This document shows, piece by piece, positions 3,774-44,073 of a stretch of DNA of 64,000 bases. The translations under genes were made by a program, and so were the position numbers. Within the stretch, counting starts at the first letter, position 1. Every line of letters begins with the position of its first letter. Origin of the DNA: Candidatus Heimdallarchaeota archaeon (lineage in GTDB: Archaea; Asgardarchaeota; Heimdallarchaeia; Heimdallarchaeales; Heimdallarchaeaceae); assembly GCA_019057375.1 (NCBI GenBank), contig DXJF01000032.1, positions 1 to 64,000 of the forward strand, read 5' to 3'. The notes under the pieces are model-generated. The model did no database searches, was not told the origin of the DNA, and was given only the letters and a program-made list of their open reading frames with translations.

Positions 3774-4841
3774 CTAAGGTTTCTCATAACCCCAACGATC
3801 GATTGTTTCATGCCATTTTGAGTAGATGAATTCTTTATCTTTCTTCGAAATTTTGTAATTTCCTACTTTATAATCATTTAGGGAATCCAAATAAATTTGA
3901 ATTTTATCTCTTACTAATTCAAAATCTCCCAAATTAAGTTGATCAAATATATTTACTAATTCTCTCATTGGGTTCGAAATTAGACTTTCGTATTTAACTT
4001 CTATTAATTGTTCTTTGGGAATAGAATCAAAGTCTTTGTAATATTTTTCATACATCTCTAAATACAAATCGAAAATAAAATCTTCCAGCTTATATTCTGG
4101 TTTTTGTAACCAGAACAAGTGAGTATTAGTTTTATGGAGTTTAACGGTTGAAAAGAAGACTTCGTATGGATTTCTGTAAATATTGATAAATTTTGCATTA
4201 GGAAAGATTTCTAAGATAAGTTTAACTCTATGAGTATCCAGAGGATTTTTGAGTAAAAGCTGTTTTCCTCCTTCTTTTAATGTTAATTTTTTTAGATAAA
4301 ACAAGAAAGTTTCTTTCCATTTATTAATTTCAGTTTCAGTCGCTTCCTCGAATGTACCGTACTTAAGATATCGTTCTCTGTTACTTGGAAAAAACAAACC
4401 AGTTTGTGGAGAAAGCAAGCAAAGATCAACTATAGGAAAATCATGCTCTTGAGGTGTGGTTGTATCCATGGACATATTGTCCATGGGTCTAGTTTCAGGA
4501 ATAAGTGGTTTCATTAGTAATGAAATTAACCTGAAACTACCAAGCATTAGATGAGGAAATGTAGCTTCAATTAAATCCAAGTAGCCATACTTTTCATCAA
4601 GAAGTAAAAGATTTTGTAAATGAGTTGTTCCTGTCCTCCAATGACCGATTATGAATATGGGGTCTTCCTTGATTTCTGTTTTTCTGACTTTTCGATTAAA
4701 TCGTAAATGTTCATAGATGGTTAGAGGAGTAAATAAAGCTGTAACTAATGTGATTGCAAGAGTTCTTGGAATATACTTCAAACTGATGTTGAATTTATTT
4801 TCCCAGAGCAATTTTAACCACACTTTTAGACTGGCGCCCAT
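3774..4841 (-). CDS. Sulfotransferase family protein (P-loop, PAPS-dependent)
   Basis: IFIIGHWRTGTT (5'-PSB loop), LLLKNP, IYRNPYEVFFST (3'-PB) and VKYESL. Confidence 0.9.
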   Translation of the reverse strand: MGASLKVWLKLLWENKFNISLKYIPRTLAITLVTALFTPLTIYEHLRFNRKVRKTEIKEDPIFIIGHWRTGTTHLQNLLLLDEKYGYLDLIEATFPHLMLGSFRLISLLMKPLIPETRPMDNMSMDTTTPQEHDFPIVDLCLLSPQTGLFFPSNRERYLKYGTFEEATETEINKWKETFLFYLKKLTLKEGGKQLLLKNPLDTHRVKLILEIFPNAKFINIYRNPYEVFFSTVKLHKTNTHLFWLQKPEYKLEDFIFDLYLEMYEKYYKDFDSIPKEQLIEVKYESLISNPMRELVNIFDQLNLGDFELVRDKIQIYLDSLNDYKVGNYKISKKDKEFIYSKWHETIDRWGYEKP

Positions 4842-5047
4842 AATGAAAATTTAAATCACGACCTGAATTTGGAAATCCTTGTTTCGAGTTTCTTTTCTTT
4901 AGGCTTAATAAACCTTATTAGATGACCATTTACCCACTAATTTCTAAAGATTGCCATAAATCAAATGGTAATCGTAATACGACCGTGTGATGTCCATAAT
5001 ATTTCTTTTTAAGTTAACAAAAGAGTAAGCTTGTTCTGGTGAAATAA

Positions 5048-5662
5048 TTGTCATGGAGATTATGGCTAAAATCAAGGCCAAAATCAATTAATTTGGGGTT
5101 TTACGGTGAAGTAAATGCTGGTAAGACCACTCTCGCAAACAAAATTGGTGTGGATTGGGCTGACCAAGAAGTTGGAATTGTAAGCGAAATTCCACACGAA
5201 ACGAGAACAATTCAAAAGCTTGAGAAGGTTAACTTCTCATCTAATGGAACTGCTTTGGATCTTACATTAATCGATATGCCTGGTATAGCATCCTCAGTAA
5301 ATCCAAAGGAGTTTATGAAACATGGACTTACAGCTGGAGAAGCAATGCAAAGAGCCAAGGAAGCAACAAGAGGAATAGTGGAAGCAATAAAATTCCTTGA
5401 AAATGTGGATGTAGCACTAATTGTAATAGATGCAGCAAAATCACCGTTTGATCAGGTAAACTTCACTATAATAGGTAATTTGGAGCACCAAAAAAAGCCA
5501 TTCATACTAGTACCAAATAAGATTGATTTACCTGATGTGGACATTCGAGAAGTTAAAGATGCGTTCAGCGAGTATCATGTTATCCCCGTATCTGCGCTAC
5601 AGGGGTTTGGTATAGAAAAATTATATGATAAAATAGCCGAATTGGCTAGGAAGGTAAGGTGA
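5048..5662 (+). CDS. oapA: Era-like small GTPase of the OapA/ArvA family
   Basis: G1 GEVNAGKT, G2 PHETR, G3 DMPG, G4 NKID, G5 SAL; followed by a DUF2073-like gene with GTGA overlap. Confidence 0.8.
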   Translation: MSWRLWLKSRPKSINLGFYGEVNAGKTTLANKIGVDWADQEVGIVSEIPHETRTIQKLEKVNFSSNGTALDLTLIDMPGIASSVNPKEFMKHGLTAGEAMQRAKEATRGIVEAIKFLENVDVALIVIDAAKSPFDQVNFTIIGNLEHQKKPFILVPNKIDLPDVDIREVKDAFSEYHVIPVSALQGFGIEKLYDKIAELARKVR

Positions 5663-6018
5663 AGAGAATGAAGTATAGAGTAGATTTTATACCATTTTCT
5701 GAGACTGATGATCTTTCATCTGAAGAGAAAATCAGTTACATCTTATCCAAAGTAATGAGGAACAGCATATTGGTTCTCGAAGAAGCACTCTCTCATGGTG
5801 AGGAGCTTAATCTTATCGAAAGAACTATGAGTAAAATTGATTACGGGAACTTTGTAGGTATTAAGATGTTCTCATTCGAGAACGGAGAAGATTTTAAATG
5901 GACAAAACTTTTTGGTAAAGGAGCTAAAAACAAAGGATTTACTATAGTAGCACCAAATGAAGCAGTGTCAGTAATTAAAGATAAAAGAGGTATCTTATCC
6001 ATAAGAATAAGTGGATAG
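5659..6018 (+). CDS. oapB: DUF2073 (OapB/ArvB-like) protein
   Basis: EKISYIL..V..NSILVLEEAL...EE..LIERTM..I....F.GI and FTIVAP pattern; coupled to the GTPase gene. Confidence 0.75.
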   Translation: MKRMKYRVDFIPFSETDDLSSEEKISYILSKVMRNSILVLEEALSHGEELNLIERTMSKIDYGNFVGIKMFSFENGEDFKWTKLFGKGAKNKGFTIVAPNEAVSVIKDKRGILSIRISG

Positions 6019-6028
6019 AAGCTTAACA

Positions 6029-6523
6029 TTAATCTGATAAAAAAGACAAAACTTCCTCAAATGTTTTCTCTATAGAAACATCTGTGGAAACAACTCTAAC
6101 CAGATCTTTACCATATAGTTGCATCATGTCGGTCAAGATAACTTCCATTATTTCTGCTTCGATGTTCTCGTCAATCTTTGATTCACTATAACCCCGTGCA
6201 ACCAGTCTCTGTCGAAGGTTACGAATCGAACAATGAAAAACGATACACTTTGATACCAACAAGGGAGGGAGTCGCGATACATGTCCATCAAGAACAAGTG
6301 GGAGGGTTGAAGTATTGCTCTCTATTAACTGAGTTAGAACTGCATTTAATTTGTCATCGTCTACTACAAAACTATCTCGTTTTTTATCATAGAAATCAAA
6401 AAGCTCTTCATCTTTGACAAGTTTCCCAACATTTGTTACTGTGTAACCTTTATTTTCCAGTAGATCAGCAATCGTAGACTTACCTGTTCCAGGTGTTCCT
6501 GTCAGAATATAAGCTTGTTTCAT
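6029..6523 (-). CDS. Archaeal adenylate kinase, AK6/Fap7 family
   Basis: ILTGTPGTGKST, LVLDGH, RLVARGYSESKIDENIEAEI. Start taken at ATG 6523. Confidence 0.9.
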   Translation of the reverse strand: MKQAYILTGTPGTGKSTIADLLENKGYTVTNVGKLVKDEELFDFYDKKRDSFVVDDDKLNAVLTQLIESNTSTLPLVLDGHVSRLPPLLVSKCIVFHCSIRNLRQRLVARGYSESKIDENIEAEIMEVILTDMMQLYGKDLVRVVSTDVSIEKTFEEVLSFLSD

Positions 6524-6594
6524 TGTAATATTGTTTATCAATATGATTAAAAGCATTTACAAAAGATAGAAGAGATTGTTGAAAAATCTGATTT

Positions 6595-6639
6595 TTCTGA
6601 AATTTCGGAATATTTATATATGTCCGTATTTTCATATAT
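6595..6639. promoter_or_regulatory. Promoter with two inverted repeats upstream of the AbrB-arsM operon
   Basis: TTCTGAAA|TTTCGGAA (6595-6610, one mismatch); TATA-like TTTATATA; ATATATG-N10-CATATAT (6616-6639). Confidence 0.5.
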
Positions 6640-6649
6640 TCTGAGAACA

Positions 6650-6931
6650 ATGAATACAGAAAAGAAAACAGAACCTTGTTGTCCAGCTAGTACAGAAGAT
6701 TTAGGATGCTGTCACATTGAAGGTGTTGTTCATGTGGATAGTAGAGGGCAAATAGTTCTACCTAAAGGTTTGCGAGATAAAATGAAAATTAGTGAAGGAG
6801 ACAGATTGATTGTTATCAGTATGCGTGAAAAAGGAGTATTATCTAGTATTTCTCTCATGAAAGCTGACAAATTAGATGGTATGGTCAAAGTCGCCCTTAA
6901 ACCCATAATGGAGGGGTTAACAGAAGATTAA
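6650..6931 (+). CDS. AbrB/MazE/SpoVT-fold DNA-binding protein with Cys-Cys pairs (resembles the so-called HgcAB-associated family)
   Basis: PCC...GCCHIEGVVHVDSRGQIVLPKGLRDKMKISEGDRL is the AbrB signature. Confidence 0.85.
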   Translation: MNTEKKTEPCCPASTEDLGCCHIEGVVHVDSRGQIVLPKGLRDKMKISEGDRLIVISMREKGVLSSISLMKADKLDGMVKVALKPIMEGLTED

Positions 6932-6950
6932 GCCCACCAATAAGGAGGTA

Positions 6951-7070
6951 ATGAAAATGAATGAAGAAAGAAATGAAGAAAAATATGAAGAAACTTCAAA
7001 CGAGAATTGTTGTGAAGAAAACAATGAGAAAAGCTCTGAACAAGAGAAAAAGAAACAAACCTGTTATTGA
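6951..7070 (+). CDS. Unannotated 39-aa acidic Cys-containing mini-protein
   Basis: Shine-Dalgarno AGGAGGT at 6943-6949; MKMNEERNEEKYEETSNENCCEENNEKSSEQEKKKQTCY*; fills the gap between AbrB and arsM. The start may be ATG 6957. Confidence 0.6.
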   Translation: MKMNEERNEEKYEETSNENCCEENNEKSSEQEKKKQTCY

Positions 7071-7102
7071 ACAGGAATAACAAGAAAAAAAGGATGATTT
7101 AA

Positions 7103-7945
7103 ATGAAATCTAAGGAAGTTAAAAAAAGTGTACGAGATAGTTATGCAAAAGTAGCTAAAAGAGGTTCTTCTTGCTGTGGAGATAGCTCAAAATCAGAAGA
7201 TGTAAGCAAAGCAATCGGGTATTCTCAAGAAGAACTATTATCAATCCCAGATGCAGCTAATATGGGATTAGGTTGTGGAAACCCAACTGCTATAGCTTCG
7301 CTCAAAGAAGGTGAAGTTGTACTTGATCTTGGATCTGGTGGGGGTCTTGATTGTTTTCTTTCATCACAAAAGGTAGGTCAAACTGGAAAGGTAATAGGTG
7401 TTGATATGACACCTGATATGATTGATTTAGCACGTGATAATGCAGAAAAAAACAACTTTACTAACGTTGAATTCAGACTTGGAGAGATCGAAAATATTCC
7501 AGTTGCTGATAATTTTGTAGATATAATAATTTCTAATTGTGTTATTAATCTTTCACCTGAAAAACAACGAGTATTTGATGAAGCATTTCGTGTTCTTAAA
7601 CCAGGAGGAAGAATCGCAATATCAGATATTGTTCTTCTTAAACCGCTTCCTGAAGCAATTCGAGATAACAAAAAGCTTCTTGCTGCATGTGTATCTGGTG
7701 CTGAATTGAAGGACAAATATTTAGAAATGATTGAAAATGCAGGTTTTGAAGACATCCAAGTCATGCAAAAAGGAAATGCTCTCACACAAGAAGTAGAAGG
7801 GGAGAAAAAAGATGGAGAACCAGAAGCTAAACTGATTGTTGATGGGGTAGAGTTAGAGTTGGAAGATTTCGATGCAGACATTGAAGATGTTAAGAATTTA
7901 GGAAAATCTATTCAAAGCATAACTGTTACAGCAATTAAAAATTGA
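7103..7945 (+). CDS. arsM: Arsenite S-adenosylmethionine methyltransferase
   Basis: [41 protein letters not shown]. Confidence 0.95.
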
Positions 7946-7980
7946 TAAATTGTAAAAGGTAAGTTCATACTTACCCTATT

Positions 7981-8718
7981 TTATTTCAATATTTCTTCAG
8001 AAAGCTTCTTTTTACCTCTCAGAGCTTTCCATATTTTCATTTTTTTTGCTTCACCTGTTCTGATTTTTCTAATGTTGTCCTTTTGTCTGCTAATCATAAT
8101 TATTGCTACACTGAAGAGAATAATAGCTACTGCCAAATTATAGGGTGCCCAAGGCATTACTACTGGGAAGAACAATGCAATGACTCCAACTAATGCAGTA
8201 GTAACAATATAGGTAATTGAAGAGTAACCTACAATAGTTATGACTATAGGCCACAAAATAATCCAAAATGCAATCATTATTGGATTAGCATATAACATTG
8301 ATGCAAGAACTACAGTAATTCCTCTTCCTGCATGACCAGGGAGAAGATAGATTGACCAATTATGTCCAAAAATAGCTGCTACTCCAGCAACGGTAAGACT
8401 AAATCCGAGTGCTGTATCTGGAAAGAAATCTGTAAGAGGTATGTTATATTGTGGAAAATTTTGGAAGTACAAGATATTTGATAGATAAAATGGTAAAGCT
8501 ACAGCTGTTACTGATCTAGCAACATCTAGAAAACCTGCAAACAATGCCCAATTTCTAGATTTTGTAGCTCGATATACATTTCTCCCACCAACGTTACCTG
8601 AACCTATTTTTCTTAAATCTTCTCCAGTCTTAATTTTAGTAATTATCCAACTAAAAGGAATAGAACCTATTAAGTAAGAACTCAAAAAAACTAGAATATA
8701 AACTACAGAGATGTGCAT
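7981..8718 (-). CDS. plsY: Glycerol-3-phosphate acyltransferase (acyl-phosphate dependent)
   Basis: SYLIGSIPFSW, DLRKIGSGNVGGRNVYR, FLDVAR, AIFGHNWSIY and AGRG motifs; multi-pass hydrophobic. Confidence 0.88.
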   Translation of the reverse strand: MHISVVYILVFLSSYLIGSIPFSWIITKIKTGEDLRKIGSGNVGGRNVYRATKSRNWALFAGFLDVARSVTAVALPFYLSNILYFQNFPQYNIPLTDFFPDTALGFSLTVAGVAAIFGHNWSIYLLPGHAGRGITVVLASMLYANPIMIAFWIILWPIVITIVGYSSITYIVTTALVGVIALFFPVVMPWAPYNLAVAIILFSVAIIMISRQKDNIRKIRTGEAKKMKIWKALRGKKKLSEEILK

Positions 8719-8796
8719 AGCTTCGAAAACGTAATAGCTAGAATAAAAGATTTATGCGCAAGCAAATTTTTATACATCTTAGCTACTCTTAAACCA

Positions 8797-10182
8797 ATGA
8801 ATAACGATATCTCTCCAAATATCTTCCGAGCTTATGATATACGAGGAATTTACAATATGGATATTTCAGCTCCTATAATGTATAAAATAGGTCTAGCCTT
8901 TGGAACATATGTTAAAAATACGCTAAAAGGAGAAGAAGTTGTAGTAGGAAATGAAATAAGACAATCCAGTATTCCCTTGGTTTATTCTTTTATTTCAGGA
9001 GTAACAGCAACTGGAATTCATGTAGTTTACGTAGGTACAACAGCATTCGGGCAAACTCTTTATGCTGGTTGGTATTTGGAAAAAACAGCAACAGCATACG
9101 TAACAGCAAGCCATCTTCCACCTGAATGGAATGGTATAAAATTTTATCATTCAGACGGTGTTGGTTTTTCAGAAGAGGAATTAATGAAGATCAGAGATAT
9201 AACTATAGATGAAAAATATTCTATGGTGGAATGGGGAGAAATTGGAAGTTCAATTTCCTATGAAATTCAGGGGAAATATGAGGAGTTTTTCAAACAGAAA
9301 TTCAGTTTTACAAAAAAAATAAAAGTTGCATTAGATTGTGGTGGGGGTAGTACCACATTATCAGCCCCAAAAATTTTTTCATCTTTGGGAATTGAGATTA
9401 CAAAAATCTATTGTGAAACTGATCCTACTTTCTCAGGAAGACCATCTGATCCTAAACCAAAAAATCTAACTGAATTGGTTAAAGCCGTTACAAAGAATGG
9501 ATGTAATTTTGGAGTAGCATTTGATGGAGATGGAGATAGAGCTGTGATTGTAGATGATTTGGGAAGAATTCTCTCTGCAGATCAAACAGGAATAATTATT
9601 GGTCAGTATGGCTTATCTAAGAAAGAAGGGACGATTATTGCAAACGTAGAATGTTCAAAATCAGTTGCTGAACAGCTTGAACCTTTAGGTTATAAAGTTA
9701 AACAGATTCCTGTTGGACACACTTTTTTAACAATCGAAGCAAAAAACGAAAAATCTCCCTTGGGTGTTGAATCTAGTGGCCATATAATTTTGCCTGAATA
9801 TTTCCTCTTTGATGATGCACTTGTTACACCCCTTAAGATTGCAGAAATACTTAATAGAGAAAAGATAAGATTGTCAACTTTAGTAGATAAAATCCCAACG
9901 TATCCCCTAAGAAAGGAAGAAATTCATTGTGACGATGAAATCAAATTTGCAGCAGTAGATTTACTAAAGAAGAAATTACTATCAAAATATGAGGATATTA
10001 ATACCATGGATGGGGTTAGAATCAACTTGAAAGAAGGTTGGGTTCTAATTAGACCATCTAACACTTCACCTGTAATTAGAATGACAATTGAAGCAGATAA
10101 TGAGGAAACGATAGAAGAACTAGCAGTTGAATTTAAAGAAAATCTTATGGAATCAATAATTGAGATTCAAACACGAAGGTGA
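8797..10182 (+). CDS. Phosphoglucomutase/phosphomannomutase family protein
   Basis: IFRAYDIRG, TASHLPPEWNGIKF, FDGDGDR, GVESSGH, IRPSNTSP. Start taken at ATG 8797. Confidence 0.95.
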   Translation: MNNDISPNIFRAYDIRGIYNMDISAPIMYKIGLAFGTYVKNTLKGEEVVVGNEIRQSSIPLVYSFISGVTATGIHVVYVGTTAFGQTLYAGWYLEKTATAYVTASHLPPEWNGIKFYHSDGVGFSEEELMKIRDITIDEKYSMVEWGEIGSSISYEIQGKYEEFFKQKFSFTKKIKVALDCGGGSTTLSAPKIFSSLGIEITKIYCETDPTFSGRPSDPKPKNLTELVKAVTKNGCNFGVAFDGDGDRAVIVDDLGRILSADQTGIIIGQYGLSKKEGTIIANVECSKSVAEQLEPLGYKVKQIPVGHTFLTIEAKNEKSPLGVESSGHIILPEYFLFDDALVTPLKIAEILNREKIRLSTLVDKIPTYPLRKEEIHCDDEIKFAAVDLLKKKLLSKYEDINTMDGVRINLKEGWVLIRPSNTSPVIRMTIEADNEETIEELAVEFKENLMESIIEIQTRR

Positions 10183-37999: not shown

Positions 38000-38497
38000 T
38001 TACTCGTCGTAATCTTGGTAAGTTGTTGTCAGGGGTTCATCTTCATCTTCAGTATTTTCATCGTCATCGTCTAGTACTGCTGCTTCAAGAGGAACAGTAG
38101 ATGATGCAACCACAGGTGTAGATTCACCACTTTCATGTGCTTTGATATCGGTTTCAGCTTCCTTAAGTTCAAATTCAAGTTTTTCTAAATCTTCTTCAAC
38201 TTTGAGTATTTTTCTTTCAAGTTCTTTAAGCTTATAATCCCTTTCTGCAATAGAAGCTTCCTTTTTCTTTGCTGAAACTTCACTTTTCAAAGCTTTATCT
38301 GGTTGTCCTTGATTTTCAAACTCTGTTTTCTTGACAAGATTTTCTTCTCGCTCTCTGTTATCTTTTGCTCTTTTTTTGTTTTCATTAGCAATCTTTTTCT
38401 TAAGATCTTGAAGGTTACCAAGCTTCTTGTAGATGTCTTCTTCAATGTCAAACTTTTTCTCTAAAAGCTTGAAATAATGAACATTTGACTCACTCAT
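38000..38497 (-). CDS. Hypothetical coiled-coil protein with acidic tail
   Basis: Long K/E heptad helices, then DDDDENTEDEDE. Confidence 0.75.
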   Translation of the reverse strand: MSESNVHYFKLLEKKFDIEEDIYKKLGNLQDLKKKIANENKKRAKDNREREENLVKKTEFENQGQPDKALKSEVSAKKKEASIAERDYKLKELERKILKVEEDLEKLEFELKEAETDIKAHESGESTPVVASSTVPLEAAVLDDDDENTEDEDEPLTTTYQDYDE

Positions 38498-38689
38498 AAT
38501 AATCCAGTAAAGTAAGGAAGAACACATTTTTAAGTTTACTCAATTAGGGGACAAAAGTGTGAAAACAGTAAATTTGTGCTTACTTAGTAGCATGGTTATT
38601 CAATCGAGATAGAAAAGAAAAATTTAAGAATAAAGTAGAATGGAAAAAAGTGTAGAGGATTAATCTACAAAAAAAATCAAAGAAGAGTC

Positions 38690-38813
38690 CGGGCTTTAGC
38701 TCAGTGGCTTAGAGCTCTCGGCTGTAGTCAATAGACACCCTTGTGAGCAATGATCAAGGTGTCAGCCGGTAGAGACCGAGCGGTCCCGTGTTCAAATCAC
38801 GGAAGCCCGACCA
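38690..38813 (+). tRNA. tRNA-Tyr(GTA) with 47-nt intron at 37/38 (38728-38774) and encoded CCA
   Basis: Acceptor CGGGCTT/AAGCCCG (C1:G72), D arm GCTC..GAGC, anticodon stem CTCGG/CCGAG with CT-GTA, T arm CCGTG-TTCAAAT-CACGG, discriminator A, CCA. Confidence 0.95.
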
Positions 38814-38815
38814 CT

Positions 38816-39571
38816 TCATCTTTTTCTACCAATTGCATAAAAAACTGGAATGAAAATAGTTCTTTTATTTTCATTAATTACCTCTTTTTCCACTATTAGT
38901 TTATTTCTAAATTCTTCTTTTGATATTAATTGAGATTCATATATAAGTCTCCATTCTTGTTCAATATTCATCAAGAGGTTTTCTTTATCCCATACTTGTG
39001 CAATTACACCGATTGAAGTATCAAGGTTAGCTGTTTCGAATAAAGTTCTGAGTTTTCTTCCCATAAAAGGATCAGCACCTTCACGCTTCAGATAATCTTT
39101 ATGATACTTCCCCAAATTATATTCTGGGTACTCTAACCAACCCCCATAATCCGGTTCTGCTAAAGCTGCTACAAACCCTCGTTTCTTACACACTCTACTC
39201 ATTTCCTTAATCGCTTTCTCAGGTTTAGATAACCACAGAAAGAGATATTGACAGAGCACAATGTCAAACATACCAGATCTCATAGAGAGTTTCTCAACAT
39301 TTTCCCGCTTAAAGTTAACATTTTTCACGTTCTCTTCTGCTAAGGAAAGCATGGATTTATCATGATCAACTGCAGTAATTTTTGCTCGAGTTCTTTTCCT
39401 TAGTTCATCTGTAATAACACCTGTCCCACAACCCACCTCTAAAACTCTTTTAGCCCCTCGTAAGTTTATTTGAGGATATATTTTGTTCCTAACAGATTCA
39501 GTCCAGTTAGCTTGGCGGACAAATTGCTCATGGATTTGTGGACCCCAGTTAACGTCTTCATTGTTTGTCAT
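38816..39571 (-). CDS. Class I SAM-dependent methyltransferase, third gene of the radical SAM operon
   Basis: VLEVGCGTG, AVDHD, FDIVLCQ, EPDYGG, GADPFMGR; ATGA overlap with the radical SAM gene. Confidence 0.92.
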   Translation of the reverse strand: MTNNEDVNWGPQIHEQFVRQANWTESVRNKIYPQINLRGAKRVLEVGCGTGVITDELRKRTRAKITAVDHDKSMLSLAEENVKNVNFKRENVEKLSMRSGMFDIVLCQYLFLWLSKPEKAIKEMSRVCKKRGFVAALAEPDYGGWLEYPEYNLGKYHKDYLKREGADPFMGRKLRTLFETANLDTSIGVIAQVWDKENLLMNIEQEWRLIYESQLISKEEFRNKLIVEKEVINENKRTIFIPVFYAIGRKR

Positions 39572-40872
39572 GAAAATGCTTCCTTACAAATATACGAGGG
39601 GGACGCATAATTCAAAGGACACCCACCTCCACAAATCTCCCTTTCTGGGCAATCTAAACATTCTTCCTGGAGGTAGTTCATTTTGCGAAGATTTTTAGAT
39701 ATCTTATTATTCCAAATCTTTCTCCATTTAGTTGTTAGTATATTTCCTAAAGGTTCAAAGTAGCTTTGACAAGGAAGTACAGCTCCATCAGGTTCAATAG
39801 CCATTGCGATATGAGCTGCTGAACACTGTTTCATCCCTAATCCTTTTTCAATAGGGTTGAAGTCACAATATCTTGTAGGGCTATACCAAATGAAAGACAG
39901 CTCTTTTTTCTCTGCAGTTTTTAGAATCCTTGTAAGAACTTCATCTAGTTCTTCAAGAGGGAGAGCTAATTCTTCTTGTTTTCCTCCACCGGATTTTATG
40001 ATGCTATTTGCAGCAAAATGATCAATTCCCAAAGAACCTAAAAATTCAACTGTCTTTTCTATTTCTTTGACATTAAATGGAGTTAGGGTAGTATTTGTCA
40101 TGATATAAACTGGAGTTGGGATAACATTCTTTATTCCTTGTACAGTTTCTTCCCATGCCCCTTTAACTCCACACAATTGGTCATGAATTTTTGAATCATG
40201 ACTCTCTATTGTTAATTGAAAATGATCAATCCCGGCTGTAACAAGCTTATCTACTAGAGCCTTATTTTTTAGTTTTCGACCGTTAGTAATCAAGCCTGTT
40301 ATAATCCCTAAATCTTCAGCATATTCCACCAAATCTGGTAGGTCTTTTCTTAGGGTAGGTTCTCCTCCTGTAAATGTAACATGTGGGATACCTATGTCCC
40401 ACAGCTTATCTAGAACCAACTTCCATTCGTCTGTTGATAGTTCCTTAATTTCTCTTGGGGTTTCAACGTAACATTTGGTACATTTACTATTGCATTTGTA
40501 TGTTAGAGCTAAATCCATCCTTAATGGAGCAGAGAAGGGAGTTTCGTTTAAAGGATTTATATCTTGAGATAAGTGTTGAACAGGATCTATATCAGGTGTT
40601 GTCATAAGTTCATTAATAGATGTTTTAAGCTCACGAAGATCAATTTCTAACTGTTCAATAGAAACTCTGTATTTCTTTTTCATTTCGAATAGAATATCAA
40701 TATCTTCTTTTCCTTCAATAATCCGTGAAACAAAATCTGTTGCAGTTTTGTTTAGATGAAGGATTCTTGTGGCATTAACTAGTAATAAACCTGTTCCACC
40801 CTTTTCCTTTCTAAGATGCATTCGAGCTGTGGTATCAAGATTTCTTTGATGATAAACTCTATATTTACCCAT
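39568..40872 (-). CDS. Radical SAM/SPASM maturase with N-terminal PqqD/RRE-like domain
   Basis: N-terminal ILHLNKTATDF...KKYRVSIEQLEIDL; CNSKCTKC; FTGGEP; SPASM CSAA...EPDGAVLPC...CLDC.....CGGGCP. Start at ATG 40872 (TAATG overlap with the upstream gene). Confidence 0.93.
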   Translation of the reverse strand: MGKYRVYHQRNLDTTARMHLRKEKGGTGLLLVNATRILHLNKTATDFVSRIIEGKEDIDILFEMKKKYRVSIEQLEIDLRELKTSINELMTTPDIDPVQHLSQDINPLNETPFSAPLRMDLALTYKCNSKCTKCYVETPREIKELSTDEWKLVLDKLWDIGIPHVTFTGGEPTLRKDLPDLVEYAEDLGIITGLITNGRKLKNKALVDKLVTAGIDHFQLTIESHDSKIHDQLCGVKGAWEETVQGIKNVIPTPVYIMTNTTLTPFNVKEIEKTVEFLGSLGIDHFAANSIIKSGGGKQEELALPLEELDEVLTRILKTAEKKELSFIWYSPTRYCDFNPIEKGLGMKQCSAAHIAMAIEPDGAVLPCQSYFEPLGNILTTKWRKIWNNKISKNLRKMNYLQEECLDCPEREICGGGCPLNYASPSYICKEAFS

Positions 40873-42554
40873 TATCTTCCACCTCCAGCACAAGCGCAAG
40901 CACAAGCACATGCACAAGCACAGCCCCCTCCACTGTAACTTCTACCACCACTACTTGATCTAGCTGGTGGAGGTCGAGTTATATTTTTCACAGAATCACG
41001 TAATGAGCTAGGTTTATGCACCAACCCAGACATGAAACTTTGGACAGGAGCTATTTGAGATATTCTTCCCTGTCGACTTATTCGCATAAAAGGTCCTATA
41101 CTTTTATGACTTCTGCGAGATATGCTTGAACCTATTGCATAATAATAGTAACTTCTCACATACCAACCAGGATAATAATAAGTTCCCCCATATTTTTCCA
41201 AACGCTGGTCATAATTTTCATCTACCATAATCCAAAGGAAGGCATTAAGCAATTCTGGATTTGATTTACTCATTTCCTGCCATGCTTTATCTATTATTGA
41301 TTCGTAATAATCCCTTGTTTTTCTAGCAGAAAAGCCTTTCATTTTTTTAGCAACACTTTTTATTTGAGCAACTAGTGCATTTTTCAAATCAGTTTGATGA
41401 ACAGGTTCTTTGGGAATTGCTCCTGAAGCTGCTCCTCTTATCCACTTTTCATCTTCTTTGTTTCTTTTTCTTATACCAACAATCATTGTTTTATGTGGTT
41501 TTGAAAATTCAGCTATAGTTGCATCTGTAGCTGCAATATCTAATCTTAACTCAGGTTTCCTTGTTCTAATATTTAGATACCCTTTTTCCATTAATTCAAA
41601 TAGCATTAAAGAAGCAACTTGCGTTAAAGGTCTTTCAAAAAGTAATGCAACTTCAGAGGGGGCTAGATCTTCTCTAATTCCTCCTCCCAATGAGCTAATA
41701 GAGGGCGGGAGATATCGTCTAGAGTTTCTTATTTTTCTAAATATGAATATAATCACAGCTAGTACAATTATACAAGCTATTGCAGTTGCTATGGGGTATC
41801 TTATCATACTGCCCCATACTAATAAAGTCCAAAACGAATTAAATGTTTTTGAATACTCTTCAGGAAATGCAACCCCAACTTCATAGCTGAAATAAGGTGT
41901 TCCTATTGATGAAAACTGTACATAAGGACCCTCAGGTGAACTTGCTACCTTGGTAAAATCTGCTATATCTGCAATTCTATAATCAACTTCCGAAATATCT
42001 GTGAGATCTTCAGGAAAATAAAATCTAACAGTTCTATTAGTTGAGCCAAATGAATAATCTAACTCATACCATGTTTGATAAAATACAACTGAAGCTAAGC
42101 CTTCTTGATTATCACTGTAAACCATTTTAGGATTGTGACATTCAACCTCTAAGATTCCAGTTTGACCAGCATAAATATAACCTACTTCATCAAGCCAAAT
42201 CTCTACACCGATATCAATGTATTCACTTTTTCTTATATCTGTTACTTCTATCCCATTTAACCAAGCTCTTACAGATTTTAGCTGATAGTAAACATTAGGG
42301 AAACCAACATCAACTACATCTATTGCTTGACCTTCTGAAGGGTGGTTAACAAACTCAAATCTATAATAAATGTCGATGGACCCATCATCAAGTATTGATA
42401 TTTCAGTGTATATTGATGGAACCTCAAAGTAGTAAGCTTCCATTCTTGGATTAGACTCAGATATATCATTTTCTCTTGCTATTGAAAATGATGGTGATAA
42501 GCTGATAGTTAAAATTACAACACTAAAAACCACAAATATTTTTTTCAAAGTCAT
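40872..42554 (-). CDS. Single-pass membrane protein (DUF2207-like architecture) ending in a GGG(CA)6GGGR tail; putative radical SAM substrate
   Basis: Signal peptide, beta-rich ectodomain, TM followed by RKIRNSRR, cytoplasmic domain, Ser/Gly linker, CACACACACACAGGGR*. Confidence 0.9.
   Translation of the reverse strand: MTLKKIFVVFSVVILTISLSPSFSIARENDISESNPRMEAYYFEVPSIYTEISILDDGSIDIYYRFEFVNHPSEGQAIDVVDVGFPNVYYQLKSVRAWLNGIEVTDIRKSEYIDIGVEIWLDEVGYIYAGQTGILEVECHNPKMVYSDNQEGLASVVFYQTWYELDYSFGSTNRTVRFYFPEDLTDISEVDYRIADIADFTKVASSPEGPYVQFSSIGTPYFSYEVGVAFPEEYSKTFNSFWTLLVWGSMIRYPIATAIACIIVLAVIIFIFRKIRNSRRYLPPSISSLGGGIREDLAPSEVALLFERPLTQVASLMLFELMEKGYLNIRTRKPELRLDIAATDATIAEFSKPHKTMIVGIRKRNKEDEKWIRGAASGAIPKEPVHQTDLKNALVAQIKSVAKKMKGFSARKTRDYYESIIDKAWQEMSKSNPELLNAFLWIMVDENYDQRLEKYGGTYYYPGWYVRSYYYYAIGSSISRRSHKSIGPFMRISRQGRISQIAPVQSFMSGLVHKPSSLRDSVKNITRPPPARSSSGGRSYSGGGCACACACACACAGGGR
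40887..40922 (-). repeat. Six-fold Cys-Ala dipeptide repeat
   Basis: TGT GCT TGT GCA TGT GCT TGT GCT TGC GCT TGT GCT; all variation is synonymous. Confidence 0.95.
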
Positions 42555-42703
42555 TGTATCTCCCCTTTTATTTTCGATTATGAATACTAAACTTTTTCCA
42601 TTGCATTAGTGTATTCTGTTGAAAAGATACAAACCTATGTTTGACAGGTATATTGAATCTATATCGCTTCTTAATTGTAAAAGAGAGCGGGAAGTTTGCT
42701 TTT

Positions 42704-43453
42704 CTAGAAGAACAAATGCTCTTCAGCTTCTTTGTCCTTTTTTTTCTTTCTTCGTTTTCTTTTCTTAATAGGTTCTTCTTTAGGCTTAATAGGTTCATCC
42801 ACATCAATTTCTTTATCTAGTTTAGTAGCTACCTCTGCCAAAGTTTTGTATAACAAAGAACGCATTTTGAATTTTGTCTCTTCATCAAAAATAGTTTTTA
42901 AAGCAGTATAAACAGTTTGATTTGCATATTTAGGTATTATACTTAGAGCAATTTGTCTAGGATATACATCGTGGTCATTCTTGATGGTTTCCAAGATTAA
43001 TTTTCTCATTACAGCTTTTTTTAGTTTCTTTCTTTCGTGCAATTTCCTAAGGGCAGCAGATCTAACAACATCGTTTAAATCATTTTTCGAAATATTCAGA
43101 AGCATCTCATCAGTATCCGAAGTAGACATGTCACCAAGTGATTCAGTTATAGCTAATCTAACATTTCTATCTCTTTCATAAGCATAAAGCTCACTCAATT
43201 TTTGGGCTATATCACTATCTTCAAATTTTGTAACGGTCATTATTGCTTTAATGCGAATTTTATAGTATTTGTCATTCTCACTTACCTGAATAAGAAAATC
43301 TACCAAATTCTGATTTTTTTGTTCATTTCCTAATTTATCCAATAACTCAAATTTAGCAAAATCGGGAGAATTATTGAATTTCTTCATCATCTTAGCTAAT
43401 TCTTGTTCCATTACATCTAAATTATAGTTTGTGCTTTTATAATTTACTAACAA
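42704..43453 (-). CDS. HEAT-repeat protein with basic C-terminal patch
   Basis: KIRIKAI, NVRLAITESLG, VVRSAAL repeats; KKRKRRKKKK near the C-terminus. Confidence 0.8.
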   Translation of the reverse strand: MLVNYKSTNYNLDVMEQELAKMMKKFNNSPDFAKFELLDKLGNEQKNQNLVDFLIQVSENDKYYKIRIKAIMTVTKFEDSDIAQKLSELYAYERDRNVRLAITESLGDMSTSDTDEMLLNISKNDLNDVVRSAALRKLHERKKLKKAVMRKLILETIKNDHDVYPRQIALSIIPKYANQTVYTALKTIFDEETKFKMRSLLYKTLAEVATKLDKEIDVDEPIKPKEEPIKKRKRRKKKKDKEAEEHLFF

Positions 43454-43518
43454 TCCAGTTCCAATTTTTCTTAAATTGGGGTTTTTATAACATGGTAAAT
43501 GAAATATAATGACTCAAA

Positions 43519-44073
43519 TTGACCACGTTACAGGATACTGAAAATATAGAAAAAGAGGGCTTTGCCATCGTATATTTTGCTGATAGTGGTTTTGAGATTT
43601 TCGCTTCAGATTTAGACGATATAAAACTCGAAACAATGCTTACAACGTATCCTACATTAATGGGAATCATGCAAAACCAAGAAATAAAGGGATTAGCATC
43701 AACAAAAATCAATGAAAAATCATTCTTGTTAGCTTTTGCTATAAACCTGAAAAACCTAAATGCAAAGGATACAAGGTTAAAACTAAAGACAGCAACAATT
43801 ATTAATTTTATTGTATCAAGAGAGATATATAAACAGCTAGTGGTTAACTTTGATGAATTCGAGAAGTTTCTAGAAAAATACTTTAAACCAATTGTTTTTC
43901 TCTTTGATCTTTATGCTGTAGACCTATCAAGAATAATACCTTTATTTCTTGAAAAACAGAAACGAGAGGAAAAACTGAAGAGAATAAAAGAGATAAAAAA
44001 GGATAATATCTCAATTGCAACAGAGTTTAACAAATGGTTAACTAGTACAATTTTTGAAAAGAAAAAAGGATGA
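43519..44073 (+). CDS. Stand-alone longin/uDENN-like domain protein
   Basis: GFAIVYF..SG.EI..SDL ... AFAI..K...KD.R pattern aligns by eye with the C-terminal domain of 14075-15865. Confidence 0.65.
   Translation: MTTLQDTENIEKEGFAIVYFADSGFEIFASDLDDIKLETMLTTYPTLMGIMQNQEIKGLASTKINEKSFLLAFAINLKNLNAKDTRLKLKTATIINFIVSREIYKQLVVNFDEFEKFLEKYFKPIVFLFDLYAVDLSRIIPLFLEKQKREEKLKRIKEIKKDNISIATEFNKWLTSTIFEKKKG

Follow-up and report, generated by a model that had tools for sequence, protein, structure and literature searches.

The 64,000-nucleotide window analysed here (positions 1-64,000 of contig DXJF01000032.1, assembly GCA_019057375.1, from Candidatus Heimdallarchaeota archaeon) contains a gene for a 560-residue membrane protein (P0001) that ends, at its exact C-terminus, in six Cys-Ala pairs followed by Gly-Gly-Gly-Arg, a segment that we refer to as the (CA)6GGGR tail. 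The next gene encodes an enzyme (P0002) with a putative recognition element (RRE) of the kind that serves peptides made on the ribosome and modified after translation (RiPPs), followed by radical S-adenosylmethionine (SAM) and SPASM domains, and a third gene encodes a class I SAM-dependent methyltransferase. We find that the tail is under extreme purifying selection at the protein level, that a widespread protein family is defined by it, and that it is inherited with the RRE-radical SAM-SPASM enzyme and usually with the methyltransferase. We propose, with a probability of roughly 0.65, that the tail is the substrate of this enzyme on the intact membrane protein.

The tail is encoded by six Cys-Ala codon pairs and then GGA GGT GGA AGA (40875-40922, minus strand), and Tandem Repeats Finder reports a period-6 array of 6.0 copies at 40887-40922. 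Cys is encoded by TGT five times and TGC once, and Ala by GCT five times and GCA once, such that 2 of the 36 bases deviate from a perfect (TGTGCT)6 and both deviations are synonymous, as had been noted in the original prediction made from this DNA. About 4 of the 18 single-base changes in each hexamer are synonymous, and the chance that both changes would be so is approximately 0.05. Two synonymous changes in one sequence can only be suggestive, and relatives were therefore compared. Of 24 congeneric genomes, 22 have the tail gene, and no copy was recovered from 16 genomes that represent other families in the same order. All 22 congeneric copies have the tail intact and in frame, 21 of them with (CA)6GGGR and one with (CA)5GGGR, and it is thus neither missing nor frameshifted in any gene-bearing congener. 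Nei-Gojobori counts over the 231 pairs of these 22 sequences give a mean proportion of synonymous differences (pS) of 0.47 in the tail and of nonsynonymous differences (pN) of 0.005 (pN/pS 0.011), and the entire pN is due to the single genome with five repeats rather than six; every variable tail base is a synonymous third position. Elsewhere in the gene pN/pS is 0.48 (ectodomain), 0.71 (transmembrane, or TM, segment), 0.37 (cytoplasmic domain) and 0.52 (linker). The earlier suggestion that the tail is selected as protein is borne out by this contrast (0.011 versus 0.37-0.71), by the presence of the tail in 120 of 150 representatives of the family (see below) and by the use of other codons in GC-rich genomes. 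For example, GGGR is encoded by GGC GGC GGC CGC in a bacterium of 66% GC (locus L028).

Repeat number shifts by whole Cys-Ala units, with five in L019, P0004, P0006 and P0020, and five or six in the Heimdall group; these whole-unit changes suggest that slippage may supply length variants that are then filtered by selection. A second function, as ribosome-binding site for the coupled radical SAM gene, is probable for the Gly557-Gly559 codons, as judged from a Shine-Dalgarno-like motif, GGAGGTG, 7 nt before its ATG, and codon 557 is GGA in all 22 congeners, and hence invariant at the DNA level. Such a role would be insufficient on its own to account for GGGR, because GGGR persists at loci with 20-180 nt between it and the next gene, and where there is no such site, as in L028.

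Homologues of P0001 were sought without the tail, in a word-indexed search using words from the first 500 residues and in an exhaustive search with residues 1-530. Of the 17 relatives found by the word-indexed search, 12 have a complete C-terminus, and every one of these terminates in (CA)n...GGGR. The exhaustive search yielded 501 representatives at E<=1e-3, and among the best 150 of these 120 have the canonical tail and 2 more have variant tails; the remaining 28 are nearly all fragments, shorter than 500 aa or ending mid-domain, and P0115, P0139 and P0141 (among the 150) may genuinely be tail-less. The variant tail of P0144 ends in GGGA, and in P0158 several Ala are replaced by Val, the spacers are irregular and the terminal Arg is missing; these two could reveal which tail positions tolerate change. 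Two designs predominate in the canonical tails. Most bacteria have (CA)2-5, a G or S spacer, and (CA)3-4-GGGR, and the Heimdall group and Methanomassiliicoccales have an unbroken (CA)5-6-GGGR. An alignment of homologue tails, proposed as a check in the original prediction, shows that the repeat number varies and that the final (CA)3GGGR is invariant in 58 sequences.

The reverse comparison asks where the tail occurs regardless of the protein that carries it. One genome per species was scanned for DNA encoding (CA)3GGGR and a stop codon, and at least 120 loci were found. The family-body profile is matched by 111 of the 119 tail-bearing open reading frames (ORFs) listed; 5 of the others are truncated at the end of a locus and 3 are short. 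Among the matches listed the tail thus occurs in no clearly different protein and is exclusive to this family. L160, L165 and L201 contain ORFs of 34-52 aa with a canonical tail but no family body in frame, which are probably assembly frameshifts or pseudogenes. The genome from which the window derives has exactly one tail of the (CA)n-GGGR type. A further set of 80 loci, used below for gene linkage, was rejected as a census of tails because its search patterns included the tail peptide.

Archaeal carriers are found among the Heimdall-, Hod- and Loki-group Asgard archaea, Methanomassiliicoccales and other Thermoplasmatota. Bacterial carriers include Chloroflexota, with many Anaerolineae, and Acidobacteriota, Planctomycetota, Zixibacteria, Cloacimonadota and Aminicenantes, and cultured carriers are available within the Anaerolineae (Bellilinea caldifistulae, Ornatilinea apprima and Leptolinea sp. 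HRD-7). One bacterial contig (L001) has tandem tail-protein paralogues (6001-7650 and 7826-9331), the second with Asp in place of the first Ala, followed by a K+ channel gene and then by the radical SAM and methyltransferase genes.

The tail gene and the radical SAM gene are closely linked. At each of the 22 congeneric loci the stop codon of the tail gene overlaps the start codon of the radical SAM gene (T[AG]ATG), and the methyltransferase gene follows the enzyme gene in 20 of the 22, the other two being too short to show it. At six distant loci obtained through unbiased protein hits the enzyme gene lies directly after the tail gene in five; in the sixth, L001, it is about 2.9 kb downstream, beyond the second tail-protein paralogue and the channel gene. 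The methyltransferase follows the enzyme in five of these six; the remaining locus, L028, closes with an unassigned, incomplete ORF. Of the set of 80 loci, 74 have the enzyme within about 4 kb of the tail gene and, of the six others, two are not long enough to tell; one subfamily has the enzyme upstream of the tail gene. The four genomes without an enzyme within about 4 kb all carry a cognate copy elsewhere (596-684 bits with the family profile), and no tail ORF was found within about 1.5 kb on either side of those four copies. In a comparison of 41 related genomes the tail protein and the cognate enzyme are found together in 23 and are both missing from 18: the enzyme scores more than 430 bits in total in each of the 23 tail-bearing genomes (split over two contigs in G004), and the best hit in the other 18 is at most 104 bits. 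Two of these 18, the congeners G011 and G019 (90% and 76% complete), lack both genes, consistent with either joint loss or joint absence from the assemblies.

The architecture of P0001 predicts a cytoplasmic location for the tail, as the original prediction had held. The protein has a signal peptide-like N-terminus, with an AlphaFold2 (AF2) helix at residues 3-18 and a likely cleavage position given by a small-x-small site before residue 27, and the AF2 model (mean predicted local distance difference test score, pLDDT, of 84) has one TM helix. The described succession of a single TM segment and RKIRNSRR is recovered, with the TM core at residues 253-272 and the basic cluster at 273-280. There is one Lys or Arg in the 15 residues before the TM core and there are five in the 15 after it, and RKIRNSRR itself has five in eight residues. 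Beyond the membrane AF2 predicts a winged-helix and helical domain (residues 284-530), and pLDDT falls below 50 from residue 534, within a linker that in homologues is variable in sequence, has a median length of 19 residues, and is 46% Gly plus Ser. Requiring at least 17 charge-free residues for a TM segment, a single TM separates the ectodomain from the tail in 96 of 115 homologues; the exceptions mostly have mis-set starts or a weakly hydrophobic Gly/Ala segment, and L099 is ambiguous. One lineage and P0016 have three TM helices, an odd number that leaves the orientation unchanged. In homologues the count of Lys plus Arg averages 1.43 ahead of the first TM and 4.82 following the last one, and the inside exceeds the outside in 106 of 113. 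A loose hydropathy scan had returned two to five TM segments, having scored the Cys-Ala tail and a buried amphipathic helix (PLNKV...KKG), and is overruled by the strict criterion and AF2. A cytoplasmic tail would share the compartment in which an Fe-S/SAM enzyme and a SAM-dependent methyltransferase must work.

P0002 has features of a radical SAM peptide maturase. In 39 sequences of the enzyme family the radical SAM CxxxCxxC motif (C127, C131 and C134) is invariant, as are six of the seven SPASM cysteines (C350, C368, C405, C408, C414 and C418), with C336 nearly so; the alignment of P0002 to CteB covers the SPASM region of CteB. HLR and LNxTA motifs are conserved in the N-terminal region, and the 39-member profile weakly matches the lasso-peptide RRE TfuB1 (6jx3_B; positions 32-102, E=1.6e-4). 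The best match of this profile to a solved structure is the sactisynthase SkfB (6efn, E=3.5e-32), followed by PqqE, SuiB and CteB. P0002 reaches no NCBIfam equivalog cut-off, those of the PqqE, NirJ2, AhbD, SkfB, StsB, AlbA, GeoRSP and WgkB models included: its best score is 145 bits against cut-offs of 381 and 500, the SkfB model gives 104 bits (cut-off 300) and the StsB-family model NF045574 gives 91 bits (cut-off 625), and TIGR04463 (the CrpC family) is not among the best 25 of its 69 NCBIfam hits. Precord et al. (PMC10288494) defined six 'catalytic site proximity' residues, which are Y, T, I, S, K and L in the sactisynthase StsB and F, F, T, S, H and Q in the ranthisynthase CteB. Using the landmarks of that study and pairwise alignments to SkfB, PqqE and CteB, we map these in P0002 to Y135, T168, I195, T221, Q369 and S370. 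Positions 1-3 are thus the same as in StsB and position 4 is conservative (T for S), and we regard this likeness as a lead towards sactionine-type chemistry, not proof of it. The methyltransferase has only generic methyltransferase hits, all below cut-off.

A structural model was computed for the enzyme (with the 39-sequence alignment) and residues 280-560 of P0001 (58 sequences), in the presence of three 4Fe-4S clusters and SAM. The complex scores 0.72, and the best of three controls scores 0.01. Among solved complexes 58 of 80 attain the 0.72 mark, and among mismatched pairs 2 of 110 do so; these counts are only approximate as a calibration since our own alignments and riding ligands were used here. 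The runs share at least 62% of contacts, and the pLDDT of the partner is at least 77. In the modelled interface enzyme residues 30-47 and 68-89 pack against partner residues 280-296, and partner residues 403-412 are also in contact. The lowest-error contacts join enzyme residues 38-47, a strand and helix of the RRE, to partner residues 282-289, which lie in the YLPP segment after the basic cluster. Tail residues 547-560 are placed in the active-site cavity, against barrel and SPASM residues that include 195, 350 and 368-370. The conservation of contact residues outside the tail is 0.65, compared with 0.40 for the remainder of the cytoplasmic domain, and 97 of 5000 random block pairs reach 0.65. 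Within the first segment Y281 is invariant and P283 and P284 are nearly so in the family alignments; within the second G407 is invariant in alignment A1 and nearly so in A2, and M405 and K406 are nearly invariant in A1. In the model, recognition appears to depend on a pair of short motifs, of which one adjoins the membrane, with the folded domain and flexible linker allowing the tail to reach back to the active site. The cytoplasmic domain had been suggested to act as a giant leader peptide; the model retains a leader-like part for the two short conserved segments (280-296 and 403-412) that touch the enzyme, and does not extend it to the whole domain.

We propose a scheme in which the tail would be the 'core peptide' of the RRE-radical SAM-SPASM enzyme. 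The RRE would dock on the juxtamembrane YLPP segment, about 250 residues upstream of the tail, as the equivalent of a leader, and the enzyme would also contact KMKGFS and feed the flexible tail into its cavity, which lies between the SPASM domain and the radical SAM barrel. The likeliest reaction would then be the formation of Cys-derived thioether crosslinks within the tail, probably of the sactionine type, to the alpha-carbons of Ala or Gly, and methylation by the co-operonic methyltransferase may follow. The product would remain on the membrane protein and act at the inner membrane face, without export as a free peptide. The chemical part of this scheme is more tentative than the enzyme-substrate relationship: that the modification consists specifically of thioether crosslinks is plausible at somewhat less than even odds, and the fuller picture, in which the Cys-Ala tail of the intact ribophorin/DUF2207-like protein becomes a ladder of thioether links (sactionine or lanthionine-like, to Ala or Gly), some of them perhaps methylated, is if anything slightly more speculative.

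Several considerations weigh against this proposal. The genomes compared are related and not independent, so that the 23/18 co-occurrence looks weightier than it is and lends support without amounting to a statistic. The RRE is weak by sequence, with no PF05402 hit for P0002 at E<0.01 and a profile match at E=1.6e-4 only. The PqqE, NirJ2 and AhbD models of NCBIfam outscore the thioether synthases for P0002, which makes any predicted type of reaction tentative; positions 5-6 of the proximity residues (Q and S) match neither StsB (K and L) nor CteB (H and Q), and the mapping of positions 2-4 is landmark-based, not by structural alignment. The complex score is a model confidence, no measurement, and since RRE-leader and radical SAM-peptide complexes have already been solved, the pass may in part reflect likeness to them. 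The topology is derived from sequence rules and the AF2 model, the chemistry of the tail is a prediction for every member of the family, and an unmodified tail could bind metal or Fe-S.

The features of the window, and those of an accessory gene found at other loci, are collected in the table.

Features of the tail-protein operon in the window, and of the zinc-ribbon gene at other loci (locus given with position).
Feature	Position	Strand	Basis or remark
Tail-protein gene, 560 aa (P0001)	40872-42554	-	ORF call
Signal peptide-like N-terminus, residues 1-26	42477-42554	-	KK n-region, hydrophobic core, SIA before R27
Beta-sandwich ectodomain, residues 40-235	41850-42437	-	AF2 pLDDT >90
TM helix core, residues 253-272	41739-41798	-	within AF2 helix 241-278
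Basic cluster RKIRNSRR, residues 273-280, positive-inside determinant	41715-41738	-	
Juxtamembrane segment, residues 280-296, with near-invariant YLPP; predicted RRE docking site (leader equivalent)	41667-41717	-	
Residues 403-412 around conserved KMKGFS; second predicted enzyme contact	41319-41348	-	complex model
Gly/Ser/Arg-rich linker, residues 528-544	40923-40973	-	pLDDT <50 from residue 534
Tail, residues 545-560, (Cys-Ala)6-Gly-Gly-Gly-Arg, exact C-terminus	40875-40922	-	translation
GGAGGTG, Shine-Dalgarno-like, 7 nt upstream of radical SAM ATG	40880-40886	-	within Gly557-Gly559 codons (40878-40886)
Stop TAA of tail gene; last A shared with radical SAM ATG (40870-40872), TAATG overlap	40872-40874	-	
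RRE-radical SAM-SPASM enzyme, 434 aa (P0002)	39568-40872	-	PF04055 E=5e-25, PF13186 E=6e-10
Putative N-terminal RRE (PqqD-like) region of P0002, about residues 17-100	40573-40824	-	profile match and HLR, LNxTA motifs
Class I SAM-dependent methyltransferase, 251 aa; ATG overlaps radical SAM stop (ATGA)	38816-39571	-	
2-TM zinc-ribbon protein	L001:5578-5967, L002:412-813, L028:2448-2852, L027:5744-6007, L067:3522-3896		

The neighbourhood contains other genes of note. Directly upstream of the tail gene in bacterial and Loki-group loci there is a gene for a small 2-TM protein with a C-terminal CxxC...CxxC zinc ribbon ending in PKW; neither this accessory nor the other neighbours conserved in those loci have a tblastn match in the window at E<=0.01. 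The Anaerolineae cassette of Bellilinea caldifistulae has a second radical SAM gene, placed between those of the SPASM enzyme and the methyltransferase and carrying a clear PqqD/RRE domain (L067:6936-8201; PF05402, E=1.5e-6), and a hemerythrin gene after the methyltransferase (L067:8954-9427). One bacterial cassette (genes at 2217-2579 on the minus strand and 4426-8430 on the plus strand) has a divergent gene for an ArsR/SmtB-type regulator (HTH_5), a single case and a weak hint of metal responsiveness. Arsenite or metal methylation, considered because of this neighbour, was dropped as a function of the methyltransferase, which scores 34 bits against ArsM cut-offs of 510-575. In the window the gene upstream of the tail gene (42704-43453, minus strand) encodes a 249-aa HEAT-like repeat protein with a Lys-rich end and a weak NblB hit (E=2e-4), which is not in the cassette at distant loci. 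No tRNA was found in 38000-43600 by ARAGORN or in 38300-43600 with Rfam at the gathering threshold, by which an intron-containing tRNA could escape. No small alternative precursor ORF is conserved in the Heimdall operon, and the cassettes of the window and of the distant loci examined contain no conserved peptidase or exporter, and no prenyl- or acyltransferase or CaaX protease.

Runs of Cys-X-Cys are well known as metal sites, and the best-surviving alternative to modification is that the unmodified tail is a metallothionein-like site for a metal, a metalloid or Fe-S, with the enzyme acting elsewhere or using the tail as a cluster ligand or anchor. The 6-8 thiols in strict, invariant Cys-X-Cys spacing are consistent with this, as are the divergent ArsR-type regulator and the hemerythrin gene that ends the Bellilinea locus, and CrpA-type proteins are tied to iron-sulfur acquisition in Methanococcus voltae (PMC13692751). 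A metal site, however, would not account for a tail that is inherited, genome-wide, together with both a methyltransferase and an RRE-bearing peptide maturase, for the Ala that invariably separates the cysteines, or for the unvarying GGGR at the very C-terminus; moreover, the methyltransferase is no ArsM (34 bits against a cut-off of 575), the complex model seats the tail in the active-site cavity, and the Heimdall operon offers the enzyme no conserved small precursor gene in its stead. We consider this alternative unlikely, at something like one chance in six.

Less likely again is that the tail is a true RiPP core, cut from a 'giant leader' after modification and released or exported as a free peptide. 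The architecture of the enzyme is of the RiPP maturase type, and the nearly invariant T-x-P/PPP motif before the linker (T526 and P528) could mark a cleavage site, or else a hinge. Against release there is the lack of a conserved peptidase or exporter, both here and in the distant loci examined, and a predicted recognition site that adjoins the membrane. The precursor would also be a membrane protein of 560 aa whose ectodomain and cytoplasmic domain are themselves conserved (pN/pS 0.37-0.48), which argues that the tail protein is more than a disposable leader. It is very improbable that the tail is a lipidation or CaaX-like signal with the methyltransferase acting on the processed C-terminus. 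Lipidation had been listed as an option in view of the thiols, and cysteines near the C-terminus do occur here with a methyltransferase in the operon, but the gene neighbourhood offers no support in the form of a prenyl- or acyltransferase or CaaX protease, the C-terminus is CAGGGR and not CaaX, the methyltransferase is a soluble class I enzyme, and a TM helix already anchors the protein. A GlyGly-CTERM/rhombosortase sorting signal was also rejected, as the tail has no TM segment, and a rhomboid gene is near the cassette in one locus only. Lastly, the six-copy period-6 array, the whole-unit differences in copy number, and the GGAGGTG motif with its invariant GGA codon 557 might suggest a neutral hexanucleotide microsatellite, or a 3' end kept at the DNA level only as a downstream ribosome-binding site, but a pN of 0.005 against a pS of 0.47, the GC-rich recoding of the same peptide in L028 without a Shine-Dalgarno-like motif, the retention of the tail where the next gene is 150-180 nt distant, and its persistence across archaea and more than 10 bacterial phyla exclude neutral microsatellite evolution and refute this explanation as a sole cause.

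In fold and build, the part of P0001 outside the tail is similar to ribophorin I and to DUF2207 proteins, but by sequence it belongs to neither family. P0001 has no Pfam or NCBIfam family match. A Foldseek search with its model matches ribophorin I/OST1 (8pn9_E, E=1e-9, TMq 0.27) and also the N-domains of M1 aminopeptidases, and atlas clusters carrying DUF2207, DUF2207_C and Ribophorin_I match at TM-scores of about 0.37-0.41. That a component of the eukaryotic oligosaccharyltransferase is the best fold match in the PDB is notable for an Asgard archaeon, but most members of the family are bacterial and the TM-score, 0.27, is low. The match to ribophorin I is one of fold only, with no Pfam match of P0001 to PF04597, and DUF2207 and DUF2207_C (PF09972 and PF20990) give no hit to P0001 even at E<=1; 12 of 58 family members weakly match DUF2207_C (best E=9.9e-5). 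P0001 shares with DUF2207 (YciQ-like) proteins and ribophorin I a signal peptide, a beta-sandwich ectodomain, a TM helix, a cytoplasmic helical domain and a Gly-rich end, and differs in matching neither Pfam model and in TM-scores below 0.5. We know of no canonical DUF2207 protein with a Cys-Ala tail or a radical SAM partner.

Radical SAM maturases are known mainly from short secreted peptides. If the tail is modified as we propose, the system would represent a new covalent post-translational modification of proteins at the inner membrane face in Asgard archaea, Methanomassiliicoccales and many anaerobic bacterial phyla, would provide a functional handle on many 'hypothetical' DUF2207-like membrane proteins, and would show RiPP recognition rebuilt around an internal docking motif, with the leader turned juxtamembrane. 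The proposal is directly testable, because the predicted tryptic peptide is short and cultured carriers exist. The literature searched contains no publication on the tail-enzyme system, and there is no curated Pfam or NCBIfam family for it.

The closest precedent is CrpC of M. voltae, an RRE-radical SAM-SPASM enzyme that installs ranthionine (thioether) crosslinks in the Cys-rich protein CrpA, and with which the enzymatic installation of thioethers on large proteins was first shown, recently, in 2026 (PMC13692751). As in the system described here, the enzyme is encoded beside a protein of full size whose C-terminal end carries a Cys-rich repeat region, and in CrpC/CrpA domain-domain contacts beyond those of RRE and leader add to binding (PMC13692751), as a second contact is predicted to do here. 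CrpA is soluble, with ten 17-residue Cys motifs and an N-terminal leader-like segment, whereas the candidate substrate here is a single-pass membrane protein with a (CA)n-GGGR tail of 10-19 residues, the predicted recognition segment is internal and juxtamembrane, and a methyltransferase is co-inherited. The tail system is also a far more widespread candidate than CrpC/CrpA, with hundreds of clusters at 50% identity.

The closest core pattern is that of the StsB/StsC-StsA and BlaB/BlaA systems (PMC10288494), which like the tail have alternating cysteines with Gly acceptors nearby. In StsA a C-x-C-x-C segment is linked to G-x-G-x-G in a sactionine hairpin (PMC10288494), and the corresponding glycines of the tail are the GGG right after the last Cys-Ala. 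StsB is an RRE-dependent SPASM-type sactisynthase and shares proximity positions 1-3 with P0002, but StsA is a short precursor of the secreted type with an N-terminal leader and a discrete RRE protein, unlike P0001. QhpD is a radical SAM enzyme that makes several intra-chain crosslinks in QhpC of quinohemoprotein amine dehydrogenase (PMC7876137), and the crosslinked product stays functional as a protein with no peptide released, as we propose for the tail. QhpC differs in being a small soluble periplasmic enzyme subunit with Cys linked to Asp or Glu, and with no repeat tail or membrane anchor. More generally, the maturases of sactipeptides and ranthipeptides act on short leader-bearing precursors, whereas the sole conserved Cys-rich partner here is a 560-aa membrane protein. 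Four differences thus set this system apart from the known ones: a membrane-anchored candidate substrate, a predicted internal docking motif, a C-terminal (CA)n-GGGR core, and a co-inherited methyltransferase.

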